A stretch of DNA of 63,934 nucleotides, filler included, from Stramenopiles sp. TOSAG23-6 (taxonomy: Eukaryota), in NCBI GenBank assembly GCA_900128565.1. It is 28 parts of 28 records of this genome, joined end to end, with 100 filler letters (N's around TTAATTAATTAA, not from the genome) between each part and the next. Parts side by side here need not be neighbours in the genome. Positions count along the whole stretch, not along the records: positions 22,982 to 25,168 come from LT638223.1; 27 more parts are not named here. One strand, given 5' to 3'. The translations under genes and the position numbers were made by a program. The notes beneath the pieces were generated by a model that was given only the letters and a program-made list of their open reading frames with translations, did no database searches and was not told the DNA's origin. Below are positions 24,168-54,393 of this stretch, in pieces; positions within the stretch are counted from its first letter, which is position 1, and every line of letters starts with the position of its first letter.

Positions 24168-25130
24168 ATGATGATTTTCGACACCATTTTTTTCAGTAGA
24201 GCAGCTGTACAAGTGTACGCTGTAGTTGGAGTCATATGGATTGGTCAGTTTCTATTGAGTCTATTGCTCAACTTTCGTTTTTTCAGATTCTTATGTGGTG
24301 AACGTCGCGTAAATTTCCGAAAGTGTAAAGGTTGGGCTGTGGTGACAGGTGCTACTGATGGAATTGGCAAAGCACTTGCAGTGGAGCTTGCTCGTCGTGG
24401 CCTATCAATCGTATTAATATCTCGAACTCAGTCTCGTTTGGATGCTGCTGCTGCTGAGTGTCTTGCTGCAGGTCCAAAGGGAATAAAGACTAAAACAGTG
24501 CAGGTCGATTTTAGTCTCCAGAATGCGGGAATATATGAAAAGCTAGAAGAAGCTTTACAAGGGTTGAATATTTCTGTGCTCATTAACAACGTTGGTGTCT
24601 CCTATCCACATGCTCAATACTTATGTGAAGTAGATGATGCCGTCTTGGATTCTTTGAGCTCAGTAAATGTAAAGGCAATGATGCGTGTTTCAAAAATAGT
24701 TTTGAAGAACGATTTGATGAAAGCTGGTAGTGTGATAATAAACGTAGCTTCAGGTGCTGGTATAATTTCGAGTGATCCATTGTATGCCGGTTATGCAGGT
24801 TCTAAATCTTTTGTTGATGCGTTTTCTCGATCTCTTGCCGTTGAATTGCGACCAAGGAAAATGTACGTTTTCAAATTTGGAAGTTGAAATTTTTTTTTTG
24901 TACGAAATTTTGTACCTAACAAAAAACAATTCTAAAAATATTTTTTCACAATACATTGTCGTTCAGTGCCATTGCCCTCTTTTTGTTGTCTCTAAACTCG
25001 CAAAAATTCGCAAACCATCATTTTTTGTCCCCACTCCTGCAGATTATGCGACGGTGGCCCTCAATTCAGTGTATGAAGGAAAACGTGTAACAATTGTTCC
25101 TCATTGGCCACATCGATTGCAACTTTACAT
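24168..25130 (+). CDS. Very-long-chain 3-oxoacyl-CoA reductase / HSD17B12-like SDR (3' partial)
   Basis: WAVVTGATDGIGKA, LINNVGVSY, YAGSK. After the intron: IVVQCHCPLFVVSKLAKIRK. Confidence 0.9.
24863..24956 (+). other. Family intron, GT..AT
   Basis: AT|GTACGT...CAATACAT|T GTC gives RK-I-VVQ. Confidence 0.88.
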
Positions 25131-25328
25131 GTATGTTTTATTTTTTTTTCAAATTCGAATTTTTTTTCNNNNNNNNNNNNNNNNNNNNNNNNNNNNNNNN
25201 NNNNNNNNNNNNTTAATTAATTAANNNNNNNNNNNNNNNNNNNNNNNNNNNNNNNNNNNNNNNNNNNNAATTTTGTACCTAACAAATTTTTTATGATTTT
25301 TTTTTTGAAATATTTTTCCAAAATACAT

Positions 25329-27455
25329 GAAGCACACTTGAAACATTTGGAAATTCTATTAAAGCATCATTCACATGCACGTGAGATTATGCTTCATGGT
25401 GATTTAAATGGTGGAACGGCAATGTACATTATACTTAATTTTTTTTGTTTTTTTTTTGTATGCAAATTTTGTACCTAACCAAATATACATATATGTATTA
25501 AATATTTCTTTATAATACAGGACTCTTGCAATTAAGTATAATCAAGAAAATGTTGTGCAATTTTTACTTTCAAATAAAGCAGACATTTACTATCAAAATT
25601 CAAAAACTGGTATGTCGTTTGCAAAAGCAGCATTTCAGTTTGAATATCATTCTGCTGGTTATGCTGGTTTTGCAATAAGAATTTTAAAAGATGGAATACA
25701 ACGTGGAATGTATGATATTCATAAATTAATTTCACAGGATGTAAAAGTATTTTCGTTAATTCCAGATGAAAAGAAAACTGAGAAAATTATCAAAATGGCG
25801 CTTCAAAATGATGTTAACGTATTTACGTTAATTCCAGATGAAATGAAAACTGATGGTATTATCAAAATGGCGCTTCAAAATGAAATAAATGTATTTAGAT
25901 TTATTCCAAATGAAAAGAAAACTGATGATATTATCAAAATGGCGCTTCAAAATGATGGATATTTACTTGATTCTGTTCCTCGAGACAAATTAATAAGACA
26001 AAATCAGGAATATTTAAAACTTGCAATGGATAATCTATTACATAACAAAAAGTCATGGGAAATCAATAACTTATTACAAAAAGGTTTTTTTGGAAAGGAT
26101 TCAAATGGTTCAATGTCAATGAGTGGATTACACCCCAGCTATTACTCTCCTGTACTACCGCATGTAGATAAGCGTGACGTATGTTTTATTTGTTTTCAAT
26201 CGAATTTCGAATTTTTTTTTTTCGTACGAAATTTCATACCTAACAAATTTTACAAAAAAAAATATTTTTTTCACAATAGTTGAAACAATTTCTCAGTCAA
26301 ATGCCACAGCAAGTAAGAGACGATATCAATGCTACTCAAAGAATATGTCATGTGAAAACGATGTACGTTTTCATTTCAATTTCGAATTTATTTATATTTT
26401 TTTCGTACAAAATTTTGTACCTAACGAGTTTTTTTTTGAAATATTTTTTCGTAATCTATGGATAAAGATTATACTAGCATTATAAATGAGTTTTTCCCAG
26501 ATTTGATTCTGCATCAATATTCTGAGCAAGAATTGAATAATTTAATAATAAAAGGATATTCAATTGAAGCTATTGATACCGCCATACAACGATTCCCAAA
26601 CAATAATAAATCCAATCTACTTCCAGCGACGGATTTGCAAAATATTGAAGAATATGTACGTTTTCATTTCAATTTCGAATTTATTTATTTTTCGTACGAA
26701 ATTTCGTAGCTAATAATTTTTTTTTTTAAATATTTTTTCAAAAGACATTTAGCCGATGGGGGAGGTACGGATGATAGTGGCTTCGTCGATAAAGTTGATT
26801 CATCAGAAGATCAGCTGCACAATCCTCTTTTACATGTACGTTTTGTTTCAGATTTTATCAATTTAAAAAAAAAACATTGTATAATATTACCAATTTACCA
26901 ATTTAAAAAAAAAAATCACACCTACGCTCAAATCAAATCCAAAATTTTTATACTTTTTTATACCTAACATTTTAAAGATTTTAAAATTATTTTTTACAAC
27001 ACATGTGAATAAAGAAAATGGTAAAAACAAACGATGTGTTACGCTTACTGACCTTAGTACTGCGCAGAAGGCCAAAGAAGAAAAAGTTTTGTTTGGTGCT
27101 ACCGATGAGCAAATTCAATGGAAACAAAAACATTTTGAATTTGTAATGGAAAAATTTGAAAAAATGAAAATGGACTATCAGATACAACAACGTAGAAGAA
27201 TCCCTTCGGGGAATTATAAGATTGATAAAATTGAATATTGTGATAATGAAACATTGGAAAACAAATACAAAGCCTTTTCTTCTCGTATATATCAGCAAAA
27301 GAAGAACACGAATGAAATGTGGTTATTTCATGTACATTTTCATCATGAATGAATTTATTTAAATTATTTTTTTTTGATTTTTTTTTGTAGTAAATTTTGT
27401 ACCTAACAAAAAACATTTTTTTTTTTTTTTTTTCACAATACATGGAGGCCCCTTA
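25329..27455 (+). CDS. Ankyrin + DUF4116-like repeats + UBA-like + PARP-like catalytic domain protein, at least 7 exons (partial)
   Basis: GGTAMTLAIKYNQENVVQFLL, IPDEKKT..IIKMALQND repeats, KIDKIEYCDNETLENKY...NEMWLFH|GG. Confidence 0.7.
25424..25520 (+). other. Family intron, GT..AG variant
   Basis: AT|GTACAT...AATACAG|G ACT. Confidence 0.82.
26179..26279 (+). other. Family intron, GT..AG variant
   Basis: GAC|GTATGT...CACAATAG|TTG. Confidence 0.8.
26363..26459 (+). other. Family intron, GT..AT
   Basis: AT|GTACGT...AATCTAT|G GAT. Confidence 0.82.
26656..26748 (+). other. Family intron, GT..AT; an AG 4 nt downstream is out of frame
   Basis: TAT|GTACGT...AAGACAT|TTA GCC. Confidence 0.8.
26836..27004 (+). 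other. Family intron, GT..AT (long)
   Basis: CAT|GTACGT...ATACCTAAC...AACACAT|GTG. Confidence 0.8.
27332..27443 (+). other. Family intron, GT..AT, splitting the PARP LFHG motif
   Basis: TTT CAT|GTACAT...AATACAT|GGA. Confidence 0.88.
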
Positions 27456-28514: not shown

Positions 28515-29578
28515 ATGTTCAACATGTTACTATATGCAGTATTACTCATTGCCGTGTACGTGGTCGAAGGAGGCAGAGAAGGTTTTCATGAAAGTCATGG
28601 AACGTGTGCGGGTTTGTTCAAGCACCATATAATGGAAGAAACTGGAGTTTGCTACAAAAAAATTAATCCCTTGTTGTCTCGTAATGACTGCCCAAACGGT
28701 AACCCCGGTTGTGACTGCGGTGGATATGACTTCACAAAGGGATCCGTTTTAAATTTTGAGGAAACAGATACAGAATGTTGCTCGGCGTTGTTGGATATAC
28801 AGGAGGTATGTTTCTGTCCATGTTGTAGTAAGTTGGAGAGATATCAGAAACCAGCCACGCTTGCATATATTGCGCTGTGCAAAGGACAAACTACTGCGAG
28901 AGAAGCCGCATTGAAAACTGAAGTGGAAGCTGTGGCAGCAAGGGAAGCCGCATTGAAAACTGAAGTGGAAGCTGCGGCAGCAAGGGAAGCCGCCGCATTG
29001 GAAGCTAATTTCGAAGCGGAAGCTGCCGCATTGAAAGCTAAGAAAGATTTGGAAGATATGAAAAATAAACGAGAAGCTCACAAAGTGCAAGTACATGCAG
29101 CAAAAATAATTCAAAAAGAATGGCGTGCGAGAGCTGCGAAGAAAGATCAAGATCGCAAAAACACAGAAGAGAAGGACGGATTTTTCTCATCAAAACGATT
29201 GATATTATATGCTATTATTGGAGGAGCTTTACTTTTTGTGCTTGTTGTATTTATTCTCTGCTGGTGCCGACGGAATAAAAATGTTGAGAAAAGGAAGTTA
29301 ACTATTAAGGAAGGAAATGTATGTTTTATTTTTTTTCAAATTCGAATTTTTGTTTCGTACGAAATTTTGTACCTAACGAATGTTTTTTCAAATATTTTTC
29401 CAAAATACATGCGTCGAGAGTCGTCCATCGAAAACATCACATGGAACCACAGGTAATACAAAAACCAGTGAAGAACTTAAACTGGTTTAAGTTTGGGTTC
29501 CTAAAAACACGAGAAACACCTGCGAATGGCGTTGTAAATGGCGGTAACAGTATTAGTGATAAATGTATACCAGTGTAA
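28515..29578 (+). CDS. Type I membrane protein: Cys-rich ectodomain, AAREAALK repeats, TM; GT..AT intron at 29319-29410
   Basis: Signal peptide and TM LILYAIIGGALLFVLVVFILCW. AAT|intron|GCG joins in frame. Confidence 0.7.
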
Positions 29579-32129: not shown

Positions 32130-32966
32130 CTTTATACAGTAGTAGTACTGCGCTGGCGATTTTTTGTACGAAATTGTATACCTAACAAAATTTTGAAATT
32201 TTTTGAATTTTTTGTACAATATATGACGATCCTTTAGTGATTTTATCGGACAGTATATTCAACGAAAACATGGTACATTAAAATCCATTATTGATGGATC
32301 TATTTTAGGTACTCATTATGGGTTGGAGTATAGTACCATTGGACAGAGCGCGCGTATTGGGGGTGCAAAAGAGAGATGGGTTGTGGTACGTTTTCATCAT
32401 GAAATTATAGTAAAAAGAATAATATTTTTTTTTTCGTAGTACATTTCGTACCTAACAAATTTTAAAAAAAAATGAAATTGTTTTTTTCACAATACATGTA
32501 GGAAAAGAAAAAAAAGATAATATTGTTTTATGTGCTCCTGGTTTAAAACATCCTTCTATTTATTTTCGTACTATTTATTTACAAAAGTCAGAAATCTGTT
32601 GGATATCAAAAAATGGACCTCCAAGTGATTTGTGTATGTTTTATTTTTTTTCAAANTTNAANTTTTTTTTTTTNGNTTTTCGTACGAAATTTTGTACCTA
32701 ACAAAAAAATTTAGATTTTTTTCAAATTCGATTTTTTTTCAAATTCGATTTTTTTTTTTTGGTTTTTTATAAAAATTTTGTACCTAACAAAAAAATTTAG
32801 ATTTTTTTAAATATTTTTCCAAAATACATACCATAAAAATGGAATGACTGTTTTTTATAGAATTCGTCATGGCCAAAAATTAGGTAAATGTCGTATTCTA
32901 TTGGAAAAAAAGAATTCATCAGATATTCAATACACAAAATATACACAAAATATACAATCAAATACA

Positions 32967-33011
<45 letters not shown>

Positions 33012-33152
33012 GAATTATTTCGTGTTGAATTGGAATTGCCTCAAAGAGCAGTGTCGCCAATGCAAGTGATTGCATTTTATTCAAATAGCTGTGGAGAAAT
33101 ATGTTATGGAGGTGGGCCAATATGTATGTTTTATTTATTTTTTTTTTTTTTC

Positions 33153-33196
<44 letters not shown>

Positions 33197-33248
33197 CAAA
33201 AAAAAAAAATTAAAAAAAAAAATTTTTTTTTTTAATTTTTTTTTTTTG

Positions 33249-33292
<44 letters not shown>

Positions 33293-33433
33293 GAAAAAAA
33301 AAAAAAATAAATAAAACATACATATTGGCCCACCTCCATAACATATTTCTCCACAGCTATTTGAATAAAATGCAATCACTTGCATTGGCGACACTGCTCT
33401 TTGAGGCAATTCCAATTCAACACGAAATAATTC

Positions 33434-33478
<45 letters not shown>

Positions 33479-34315
33479 TGTATTTGATTGTATATTTTGT
33501 GTATATTTTGTGTATTGAATATCTGATGAATTCTTTTTTTCCAATAGAATACGACATTTACCTAATTTTTGGCCATGACGAATTCTATAAAAAACAGTCA
33601 TTCCATTTTTATGGTATGTATTTTGGAAAAATATTTAAAAAAATCTAAATTTTTTTGTTAGGTACAAAATTTTTATAAAAAACCAAAAAAAAAAAATCGA
33701 ATTTGAAAAAAAATCGAATTTGAAAAAAATCTAAATTTTTTTGTTAGGTACAAAATTTCGTACGAAAANCNAAAAAAAAAAANTTNAANTTTGAAAAAAA
33801 ATAAAACATACACAAATCACTTGGAGGTCCATTTTTTGATATCCAACAGATTTCTGACTTTTGTAAATAAATAGTACGAAAATAAATAGAAGGATGTTTT
33901 AAACCAGGAGCACATAAAACAATATTATCTTTTTTTTCTTTTCCTACATGTATTGTGAAAAAAACAATTTCATTTTTTTTTAAAATTTGTTAGGTACGAA
34001 ATGTACTACGAAAAAAAAAATATTATTCTTTTTACTATAATTTCATGATGAAAACGTACCACAACCCATCTCTCTTTTGCACCCCCAATACGCGCGCTCT
34101 GTCCAATGGTACTATACTCCAACCCATAATGAGTACCTAAAATAGATCCATCAATAATGGATTTTAATGTACCATGTTTTCGTTGAATATACTGTCCGAT
34201 AAAATCACTAAAGGATCGTCATATATTGTACAAAAAATTCAAAAAATTTCAAAATTTTGTTAGGTATACAATTTCGTACAAAAAATCGCCAGCGCAGTAC
34301 TACTACTGTATAAAG
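32130..34315. repeat. Whole-contig perfect palindrome centred at 33222/33223 (probable fold-back artefact)
   Basis: The second half is the exact reverse complement, including the N positions. Mirrored ORFs 32844-33314 and 33131-33601. Confidence 0.95.
32225..33123 (+). CDS. TRMU: tRNA 2-thiouridylase, C-terminal exons; GT..AT introns at 32386-32497 and 32634-32829
   Basis: FSDFIGQYI, ILGTHYGLEYSTIGQSARIGG, RIRHGQ, PQRAVSPMQVIAFY, CYGGGPI. Confidence 0.88.
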
Positions 34316-45862: not shown

Positions 45863-47075
45863 GATGTGTTGTCTTTTAATACACACATTGGAATCTATCA
45901 TAGTCGTGTTTTGGTTTTGTGACAAGAAGAAAGGAAATACAAAACTTTCATATCATCTTTATTTTGAAACAATATTAACTTGGACTTCGCTTTTAGCTGA
46001 ATTATCTGTCCAAATAATACATAGCCCAAGTAAAAGTGTATATTGTATGACATTTTTACCCATAACTAGAGGTTTTCGAGTGCTTCGTTTACTCACAGTA
46101 TCGTCATACTTTGATAGAATGTGGAGGGCAATTGTTGTTGCAGTACCAGTTCTATTTGCTCTTTCAGCAGTTTGGTTAGGTCTTACATATTCATACGTAA
46201 TTGTTGGTATGGAACTATTTGGAAAAATTGGTGATAAAGAAGCACTTGCAGGAGAAGTTGATGATTATGCTCCTTTTGGTAGGAATATAGGTAGACTTAG
46301 AATAAATAAAATGCTTCATCAAATTGAAAGAAATAAAAATCCTGCAGCAGATGCATTTGTAAATCACCAACATGTACGTTTTTGTCATTAATTTCCAATT
46401 TTGTTTTTTCGTACGAAATTTCGTACCTAACAAAAAAACAACCAAAAATTTTTTCACAATACATGCACTATTTACTGGTTTTGCATCAACATTAGGTCTA
46501 CTTTGGCAATTGACAGTATCGAATAATTGGCAAGATATGTACGTTTTCACTATGAATTTGAATTCTTTTTACGACGAAAATTTTTTACCTCACGAATTTC
46601 AAATTTCAAATATTTCTTAGGACACATAATGCATCCCAACATTGAGCGTACGAGTCAATACTATTCCTGGTATTTTACAACTTATTATTGGTTATGCCAT
46701 ATGTTCCTATTAGATGTTATTATTGGTGTTGCGATTGATGCTGTACAAAATTTAGATGATGAAGATAATAAAGTGAAAGATAAAGTCAATGAGGGAGGTA
46801 ATCGCCATTCTAGCATATCTAGTTTAGATTACAATACTTCTGGTCTTAGTTGGAATTCACTTTTAGGTTTTTCTGAAGACGTCACAATAGAGAATGTTCT
46901 CAAAGAGGACCACAAAATGGTTGATGGAATGACAGCAAAGTTGACTGCTCAATCAAGAGAAATAGCATACGATACATTTTCAGATCAAACGTCTAAAGCG
47001 GCAAAACTTTGGAAAAAAGCCATCACTGCAGCCATGTCACCTAAAAAGTTTCCTCAACTTCACCAAAAAGACTAA
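45863..47075 (+). CDS. Two-pore/voltage-gated cation channel C-terminus; GT..AT introns at 46374-46464 and 46539-46627
   Basis: S4-like RGFRVLRLL, YVIVGMELFG, pore LTVSNNWQD-I-M, FLLDVIIGVAIDA. Confidence 0.8.
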
Positions 47076-53147: not shown

Positions 53148-54393
53148 ATGGGATTCGGATTAGTTGCCAAATGTATTGCACTTCTTGCAGTCATTGTAGG
53201 TGTTGTAATTTTCGTCCTTCCTCCAGATGTGCTGAAAGGAATATCATCCAATGTTGTTCTCAATAATTGGCAGCTTCAATTGACCGTAACCGGGTTCTGT
53301 TTTTCGGGGCTTCCGCAAAGATTACTCCAACCTGAACGCGGCCTTGATATTGGCGGTGATTTCGATTTTGCTACTGATGGTGATCTTGAAAACGACGATT
53401 ACAATAAGGCATCGATTTATTCACTTTTGTATGGAATGTATGCGAATGCTGGTACAGTCATCTCTGACTTGGGTGTTCCTTACCAATTCACGTTTAATAC
53501 TTGGGGAATCGCACCAAGTCCGTACCCTGTGAATGATCCACAACGCCACGGCAAAGCGGCATACACAGGTCTCGTTCGTTTCCCACAAGTTCTGGAGTAC
53601 TTAGAAAATGTAACGGATTCTCCGGTCATGGTGGAAATCGGCAGTGGAACTGGAGCCGGAGCTAACCTCATTACTCGTGAACTTATTCCTAAGGCTACAT
53701 ATTATGCCATTGACATGCAAGCTGCTGGTGTAGCCACGTGTAAAAAACTTCATGGTAACGAATCAAATCCAAATCTTAAGTGTGTGCATGCTCCAGAAGG
53801 TATTGGAGTGGGTGGTAATCGTGTAAAATATCCTGACGGTAGCTTAATGCCTGACCATTCCGTTGATTTCGTGATTATCTGTGAAACTCATATTGCAGAT
53901 GTCGAAATTGGAGTAGAAGAAAAAGCAATATTCGCTGAAATTCACCGTATTTTGAAACCAGGAGGATATTTCTTATGGGGTAATGCTTTACCTACGCGAG
54001 TTTGGAATGCTGCCGTTCCTTATCTCAACGATAATGGTTTTAGTCGTCAAATGAGTTTAAATCACACTGCCGGTGCCATTACTGCGCGAGACGAAGATGA
54101 AAACCGTGTAAACGCGTACTGCGATTCCCTTATGGGTGGATTCCCCGTCTTCAAGGCTCCATTTGGTTGGGGTGACGAGTGCCATCTTGTCACTGATCGA
54201 CTCATTAAAAACTTTTACAGACATCCTGGTACTGTACGTTTTCATCATCAATATCAAATCTATTTATTTTTTTATAAAAATTTTGTACCTAACAAAAACA
54301 ATTTGAAAATATTTTCCTAAAATACATGCGTTGTATTTGAAGATGGTTACTGGTTTTGATTCATATATGCATGAAGCATACCAAGCAAATTGA
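53148..54393 (+). CDS. SAM-dependent methyltransferase with N-terminal anchor; GT..AT intron at 54234-54327
   Basis: VEIGSGTGAG, FAEIHRILKPGG. ACT|intron|GCG gives RHPGT-ALYLKMVTGFDSY. Confidence 0.85.

Follow-up and report, generated by a model that had tools for sequence, protein, structure and literature searches.

The motif at positions 24896 to 24920 is probably the inherited central block of an introner-like element, whose copies now serve as introns that run from GT to AT, would be read at the donor by a variant U1, and would not need the palindrome within the block. The motif was studied in a window of 63,934 nucleotides, the whole stretch of DNA analysed, in which spacers separate 28 contigs, each about 2.2 kb long. 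Genome searches covered the 21.1-Mb assembly of this eukaryote (6,236 contigs), which is partly redundant because it contains duplicate contigs. Near-identical public proteins bear the EukProt label GSMAST32.

A recurrent block in the branch region of an intron family

The window holds 26 matches to the 25-mer with at most three mismatches, 7 of them exact, whereas 100 shuffles gave none; the recurrent motif family noted in a sequence-only reading of the window is thus real and far above chance. Two of the 26 matches (33743 and 34259) are mirror duplicates inside a self-inverted contig, which leaves 24 independent matches, 6 of them exact. In the assembly as a whole, the core TTYGTACCTAAY has 10,377 matches, a number inflated by duplicate contigs, against 31 for the reversed control. 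The features discussed here are listed below, with a slash marking the exon-intron junction.

24171..24862, + strand: exon 1 of a short-chain dehydrogenase (very-long-chain 3-oxoacyl-CoA reductase-like), ending in AT (Pfam adh_short, E 3.9e-31; homologues)
24861..24871, + strand: donor AT/GTACGTTTT, complementary to the U1 5' end of this genome (sequence; U1 alignment)
24863..24956, + strand: predicted 94-nt family intron GTACGTTTT...CACAATACAT (GT-AT) holding the motif (protein-profile score of 3' ends)
24896..24920, + strand: central block, an imperfect palindrome followed by GTACCTAAC, with the predicted branch A at 24919 (sequence; branch from canonical U2 pairing)
24942..24956, + strand: conserved 3' box TTTTTCACAATAC, then AT, the predicted acceptor and putative copy of the target dinucleotide (profiles; duplication test)
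24957..25130, + strand: exon 2 of the dehydrogenase (restores homologous sequence)
25131..25168, + strand: start of a second family intron, AT/GTATGTTTT, truncated by the contig end (sequence)
29319..29410, + strand: family intron with the exact 25-mer (motif match)
32130..34315, no strand: self-inverted contig in which motif copies are duplicated, probably as an artefact of assembly or amplification (mirror-symmetric segments, identical matches on both strands)
46374..46464, + strand: copy of the intron family inside an ion-transport gene, with the perfect 16-mer at 46411-46426 (Ion_trans in the frames on either side)
54234..54327, + strand: family intron whose donor is preceded by CT and whose palindrome has decayed (sequence)

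Mirror-image contigs like that at 32130-34315 also occur elsewhere (C2, C4) and are likely amplification chimeras.

The block was assigned by the earlier reading to the branch region of spliceosomal introns, and this is right: it is the branch region of a family of introns of about 100 nt. Other parts of that description stand in modified form. The copy at 24896-24920 reads TTTTGTACGAAATTTTGTACCTAAC, with a single mismatch to the quoted motif, and its 12-mer is therefore not a perfect palindrome. The perfect 16-bp palindrome said to lie directly before CTAAC at about 46410-46425 does exist, at 46411-46426. Near-invariance applies to GTACCTAAC, whose positions are conserved at 91-98% in a set of 148 introns chosen without the branch motif, and not to the four C/G positions of CGTACG, at 61-72%. 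In the same set, CTAA is present in 132 introns, the 12-mer palindrome in 47, the exact 25-mer in 30 and the perfect 16-mer in 9. The GTAC that precedes CTAAC is conserved at 0.94; the branch window was positioned by best match, which inflates its conservation. An Rfam scan of the window returned no matches.

The introns end in AT

We scored all candidate 3' ends from 24921 to 25049 of the dehydrogenase intron against a profile of 119 homologues. The best end was 24956, an AT, with 344.8 bits. Two AG ends reached 273.2 and 272.6 bits and the unspliced sequence 270.7 bits. An AG acceptor was rejected for this intron, as it breaks the protein match (about 273 against 344.8 bits for the AT end). 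Protein homology thus argues for removal of 24863-24956 as a GT-AT intron.

Clean copies of the motif are flanked by the donor GTAYGTTTT and the 3' box TTTTCACAATACAT in introns of 82-137 nt, and 112 of 178 motif matches passed the filters applied. Two sets of introns were defined by their ends, without the branch motif: the 148 introns mentioned above, obtained from 380 donor matches with overlaps included, and 228 introns for which one donor mismatch was allowed. Both were drawn from match-rich contigs and are not a random sample. Among the 228 introns, 174 are GT-AT, 14 GT-AG and 9 GT-TT. The donor consensus is GTAYGTTTT, with G at +1 in 218 introns, T at +2 in 220 and C or T at +4 in 227, one donor mismatch being allowed.

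These introns possess the GT donor of U2-type introns and a branch box that matches the GUAGUA of U2, and they lack the AG acceptor of that class (GT-AG in only 14 of 228). An AG lying between the branch and the true end is bypassed in 29 of the 190 non-AG introns, and the distance from branch to end varies from 32 to 58 nt, a spread that rules out a fixed branch-acceptor distance. Neither scanning for AG nor a ruler from the branch fits these observations. Assignment to the U12 type by sequence was rejected as well: the -2 register creates stops, and the donors read GTAYGTTTT and not RTATCCTT, the consensus of U12-type donors.

The register was examined at the protein level in a second gene, which we take to encode a thiamine-diphosphate enzyme. 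Cuts at GT or GG...AT restore motifs common to its homologues. A shift by -2, to AT-AC, places a stop inside GNDACW, the most frequent form in homologues with GND (29); the AT-AC register also yields stops in further genes. Shifts by +1 or +2 turn WIIWGDG into WIMWGDG, and a shift by -1 is compatible with the protein. The public model of this gene drops conserved residues.

Direct evidence of splicing comes from a gene other than the dehydrogenase, presumably ATP synthase beta, in which RNA contigs jump exactly 91 nt. This joint, which fits GT..AT and AT..AC equally, was present in three of the four runs examined, from two studies (X1 and X3 share a sample, and X7 belongs to the second study); no splice joint was seen in this intron in the fourth run, X2. 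Exact restoration of the gene is therefore seen in RNA for one intron and at the protein level for two genes.

Several other loci show the range of the family. A single gene at L032:953-2954 carries nine family introns, which start with GT, AT, GC, GA or GG, and the branch block is internally duplicated in two of the nine. The window itself holds an intron-rich gene at 25269-27455 with ankyrin-like and DUF4116 repeats, which includes family copies ending in AG; its WLFHG motif is presumably PARP-like. At L052:7427-7549, the depth summed over the intron in the non-polyA run X2 is about 2,600, compared with about 2 for the neighboring exons. This depth likely reflects collapsed repeats from DNA or pre-mRNA, and it may reflect stable intron RNA.

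A variant U1 matches the donor

The 5' end of U1 in this genome reads AAACGUACAUGG, in comparison to the Rfam consensus AUACUUACCUGG, and the differences lie at donor-pairing positions. The variant end is complementary to CCAU/GUACGUUU, the exonic U included, so that the pairing region matches an atypical donor as in coevolved U1 RNAs. The informative position is exon -1, which played no part in the choice of the 148 introns: it can pair in 0.89 of them with the variant U1 against 0.04 with a canonical U1, whereas pairing from +1 to +8 holds by construction. Both C and T at +4 pair with the new G5 of the variant, and the mixture of C and T at this position could come from CpG decay alone. The changed snRNA predicted by the sequence-only reading was therefore misplaced rather than absent: it is not U2 at the branch but another snRNA, U1, at the donor.

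The U1 gene is present in two identical copies, inside a U5-U2-U1-U4 cluster of 645 nt that itself occurs twice. No further U1 copy and no canonical U1 5' end were found in the assembly. The four genes are arranged head to tail and separated by 2, 23 and 5 nt, at L075:9-645 (G000:C1146) and on L002 (G000:C6122), the two being identical to base 664, and the cluster is possibly one polycistronic snRNA transcript. One of the U1-cluster contigs also carries a family intron. The U5-U2 cluster pattern had no match in metagenomes.

It is possible, though we consider it unlikely, that the GT-AT introns are real and that the variant U1 is non-functional or minor, the donor being picked by an unassembled canonical U1 or by U6 and U5 alone. 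The U1 gene scores 54.1 bits in Rfam, below the cut-off of 69.5, and both of its protein-binding loops diverge. U1-70K, U1-C and Luc7 were not found in a loose first-look search of an incomplete assembly, where absences are no evidence; a zf-U1 match considered for U1-C belongs to a 509-aa protein and was judged otherwise. Together, these properties could describe a divergent or dead copy beside a canonical U1 that was not assembled. Two other systems lend this possibility some weight, since the available text on Fritillaria describes a retained canonical U1 5' end (PMC13326754) and that on Amoebophrya describes no detectable U1 (PMC7789003). However, in the U1 studied here, the changes occupy the positions at which they bring back pairing to the consensus donor; the RNA has kept its ability to fold (z -2.31) and its Sm site, and its two identical copies stand between intact U2 and U4 genes. 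These observations favor a functional variant U1.

U6 has a canonical ACAGAGA box and U5 a canonical loop 1, and genes for Slu7 and Prp8 were found. Prp8 (L082:2886-8951, minus strand) is a 2,021-codon open frame without introns; by comparison with the human protein only, residues 1453-1591 are closely alike and 9 of 12 residues differ in 1440-1451. The 1585-loop region of this Prp8 is canonical. One frame, recognized by eye, is presumably U2AF65-like. U2AF35 was not found among 16 CCCH matches, by reading RRM loci or by a degenerate motif search, of which one match was discarded as out of frame in another gene; METTL16 was not found in the assembly either. Neither result is evidence of absence.

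A probable mobile-element origin of the introns

Look-alike introns in unrelated genes, the hallmark of introners, are found here: the 228 introns have a median pairwise identity of 73% and a nearest-neighbor identity of 85%. Variable sites far apart in the intron are linked (p 2e-15 and 5e-13), and this linkage between opposite ends marks subfamilies. The second hallmark, a target-site duplication, is found with a length of 2 bp. Among the introns that do not end in AT, 14 of 25 end in the same two bases as the preceding exon, against a mean of 1.25 and a maximum of 7 in 20,000 shuffles, which is the signature of such a duplication. The match between exon and intron end exceeds chance at -1 and -2, weakly at -3 and not at -4. 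In 33 of 148 copies, the AT end is not matched by the end of the exon, for which the duplication model needs later mutation. The empty site resembles the palindrome CATG (C at 0.35 on the left, G at 0.56 on the right); together with the 2-bp duplication, it points to a DNA element. The consensus terminal inverted repeat, GTAY...ATAC, measures only 4-5 bp.

We did not find a parent element with a transposase and the ends of the family in a search with one transposase family, which gave 5 matches. A complete Harbinger-like transposon occupies L171:502-3610 (G000:C2432), with a transposase, a convergent second frame, 28-bp inverted repeats and an apparent TAA duplication. Its ends differ from those of the intron, and a shortened family copy lies between its two frames. 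Another transposase locus showed no family ends. Searching metagenomes with the motif returned a single record, in which L077 (MDTB01012742.1):1461-1568 is a family intron whose exons are unmatched in this assembly; its source is either a missing part of this genome or a relative. Viral contigs gave no matches to the motif. Frames on L156 and L157 (G000:C2020, C1393) have a make-up unlike the rest of the assembly, possibly through contamination.

Spread through RNA, by reverse splicing into CAU/G proto-sites, with the central block kept since copies must splice well, appears improbable to us. The minimal inverted repeats and the lack of a matching transposase in our search would agree with it, and the site consensus CAT/G also suits U1 pairing. 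However, plain reverse splicing does not predict that rare end dinucleotides repeat the last bases of the exon, and the roughly two-fold symmetry of the site preference likewise speaks against it. Among the explanations offered in the sequence-only reading, an inherited part of the parent element, possibly a site for putative transposase binding, fits best.

The palindrome as a proposed hairpin

Another proposal was a hairpin in the RNA (GUACGA/UYGUAC) presenting the branch adenosine; splicing would depend on it. Such a helix can form: folding energies are -4.4 kcal/mol for the consensus and -6.5 kcal/mol for the perfect form, with CUAAC left free, structure prediction for the intron 24863-24956 includes the helix, and the 16-mer hairpin has a pairing probability above 0.5 in 38% of 136 introns folded. 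Alignment of the 148 introns speaks against any requirement for it. None of the six hairpin pairs covaries beyond a column shuffle (p 0.07-0.94), all six are kept in only 59 copies, and the closing pair is an A-C mismatch in 37. Even with the best of three registers, six pairs are retained in just 79 of 227 copies. Moreover, the fold of the intron 24863-24956 is no better than those of shuffles (z -0.30), and the intron confirmed by RNA lacks the palindrome and carries CCAAAAG in its place.

The hairpin also decays with the age of the copies. The six pairs are kept in 45% of 92 copies with intact ends and in 16% of 38 copies with at least two end mismatches. As the ends decay, identity of the palindrome core falls from 0.79 to 0.62 and that of CTAAC from 0.97 to 0.94 (227 of 228 introns used; placement by best match favors CTAAC). 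At the four C/G positions of CGTACG, 134 of 255 substitutions are CpG-type transitions. The shorter 12-mer hairpin was discarded, with a mean pairing probability of 0.008; its three inner column pairs exceed the shuffle, the two innermost being unable to close an RNA loop, and we read this signal as register slips and subfamilies. We conclude that a hairpin needed for splicing is very unlikely. As the helix is possible in 38% of the introns folded, it may act as a modest modulator of splicing.

The branch-binding snRNA

The remaining proposal, in which an altered U2 or U12 carries a longer complement (GUAGGUAC, for example), has almost no chance of being correct despite the well-kept GTAC before CTAAC and an assembly that may be incomplete: it is refuted for this assembly, in which both U2 copies read AAGUGUAGUAUCUG with the canonical GUAGUA, a search for the U2 5' stem with up to 3 mismatches yielded those two copies alone, and U12, U11 and U6atac were not found (weak negatives, as control queries also had no match). 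By inspection, CUAAC forms the usual four pairs with U2 around a bulged A; three further pairs, with GUA, become available if one C is looped out, which may explain the good retention of GTA. The branch A would be the last A of CUAAC, at 24919 in the copy at 24896-24920.

A model for the origin and splicing of the family

We propose that a non-autonomous mobile element of about 92-100 bp became most of the introns seen in this protist. At the DNA step, the element would insert at AT, preferably within CATG, and duplicate 2 bp. At the RNA step, the major spliceosome would remove the element along with one copy of the dinucleotide and thereby restore the gene exactly. The U1 gene is present in the assembly, and its product would act by pairing AAACGUACAUGG with CAU/GUAYGUUU: its G5 would tolerate C or U at +4, and its A9 would pair with the exonic U, at a position where ordinary U1 pairs with G. 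Canonical U2 would pair with CUAAC and bulge the branch A. The 3' cut would then fall two bases past the conserved TTTTCACAATAC box, whichever bases follow, and would thus be set neither by AG nor by the distance from the branch. The palindrome would be dispensable for splicing, an ancestral sequence perhaps once used in mobilization.

On a broader level, we lean slightly towards the view that the major spliceosome of a free-living stramenopile has been remodeled around a single transposon, with AT in place of AG at both junctions (CAT/GT ... CAT/G), a U1 rewritten for the donor and the duplicated exon base, and a 3' cut directed by a box carried on the element without recognition of AG. The 3' AG and the 5' end of U1 rank among the most conserved features of splicing. 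Thousands of GT-AT introns alongside a donor-matched U1 and canonical U2, U5 loop, U6 box and Prp8 region would constitute a natural experiment that brings two questions within reach of a test: the mechanism of the second step in the absence of AG, and whether a mobile element can drive the evolution of an snRNA. On the practical side, public gene models of this organism delete conserved residues at family introns. We found no report of GT-AT introns with a matching U1 in the literature searched, which mostly did not extend to subscription journals; the supplements of introner studies may list this organism.

Comparison with known systems

The following comparisons refer to the portions of each source that were available. 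The family resembles introner elements, such as IE1 of Micromonas pusilla and others, in that thousands of look-alike short introns are present and in that the element brings the donor while the target-site duplication supplies the acceptor (PMC11282704; PMC12130899). The duplication of the M. pusilla example measures 3 bp and supplies AG (PMC11282704; PMC12130899). Here, in contrast, it is 2 bp long and supplies AT, sometimes TT or GT, which implies that the spliceosome accepts a non-AG end, and the inverted repeats are very short.

Fritillaria borealis likewise possesses genome-wide non-GT/AG introns of transposon origin, which are handled by the major spliceosome and have a 3' end derived from the duplication (PMC13326754; PMC11282704). 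Its introns are described as mostly AG-AC and AG-AT, with a strictly preserved U1 5' end and a duplicated U2AF (PMC13326754; PMC11282704). The present family differs in its GT donor, its strong branch box and its changed U1 5' end, and U2AF35 was not found in our search. Repeated non-canonical introns with direct repeats at their borders are also described in another marine protist, Amoebophrya, whose introns have highly variable ends and inverted repeats of 8-20 nt forming hairpins, and in which U1 was not detected (PMC7789003). The family studied here has uniform ends and no evident end-to-end hairpin, and its genome contains a matching U1.

Finally, U1 RNAs that coevolved with atypical donors are described in Entamoeba (AACAAAC) and Mastigamoeba balamuthi (ACGUAC) (bioRxiv 10.1101/2022.06.08.495308). 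The U1 studied here shares the ACGUAC core with M. balamuthi and has an A opposite +7 as in Entamoeba. In the available text of that study, the altered U1 positions all lie opposite the intron, with no mobile family given as the cause. In contrast, the U1 of this stramenopile also carries a C-to-A change facing exon -1, in agreement with the AT target site of the element.
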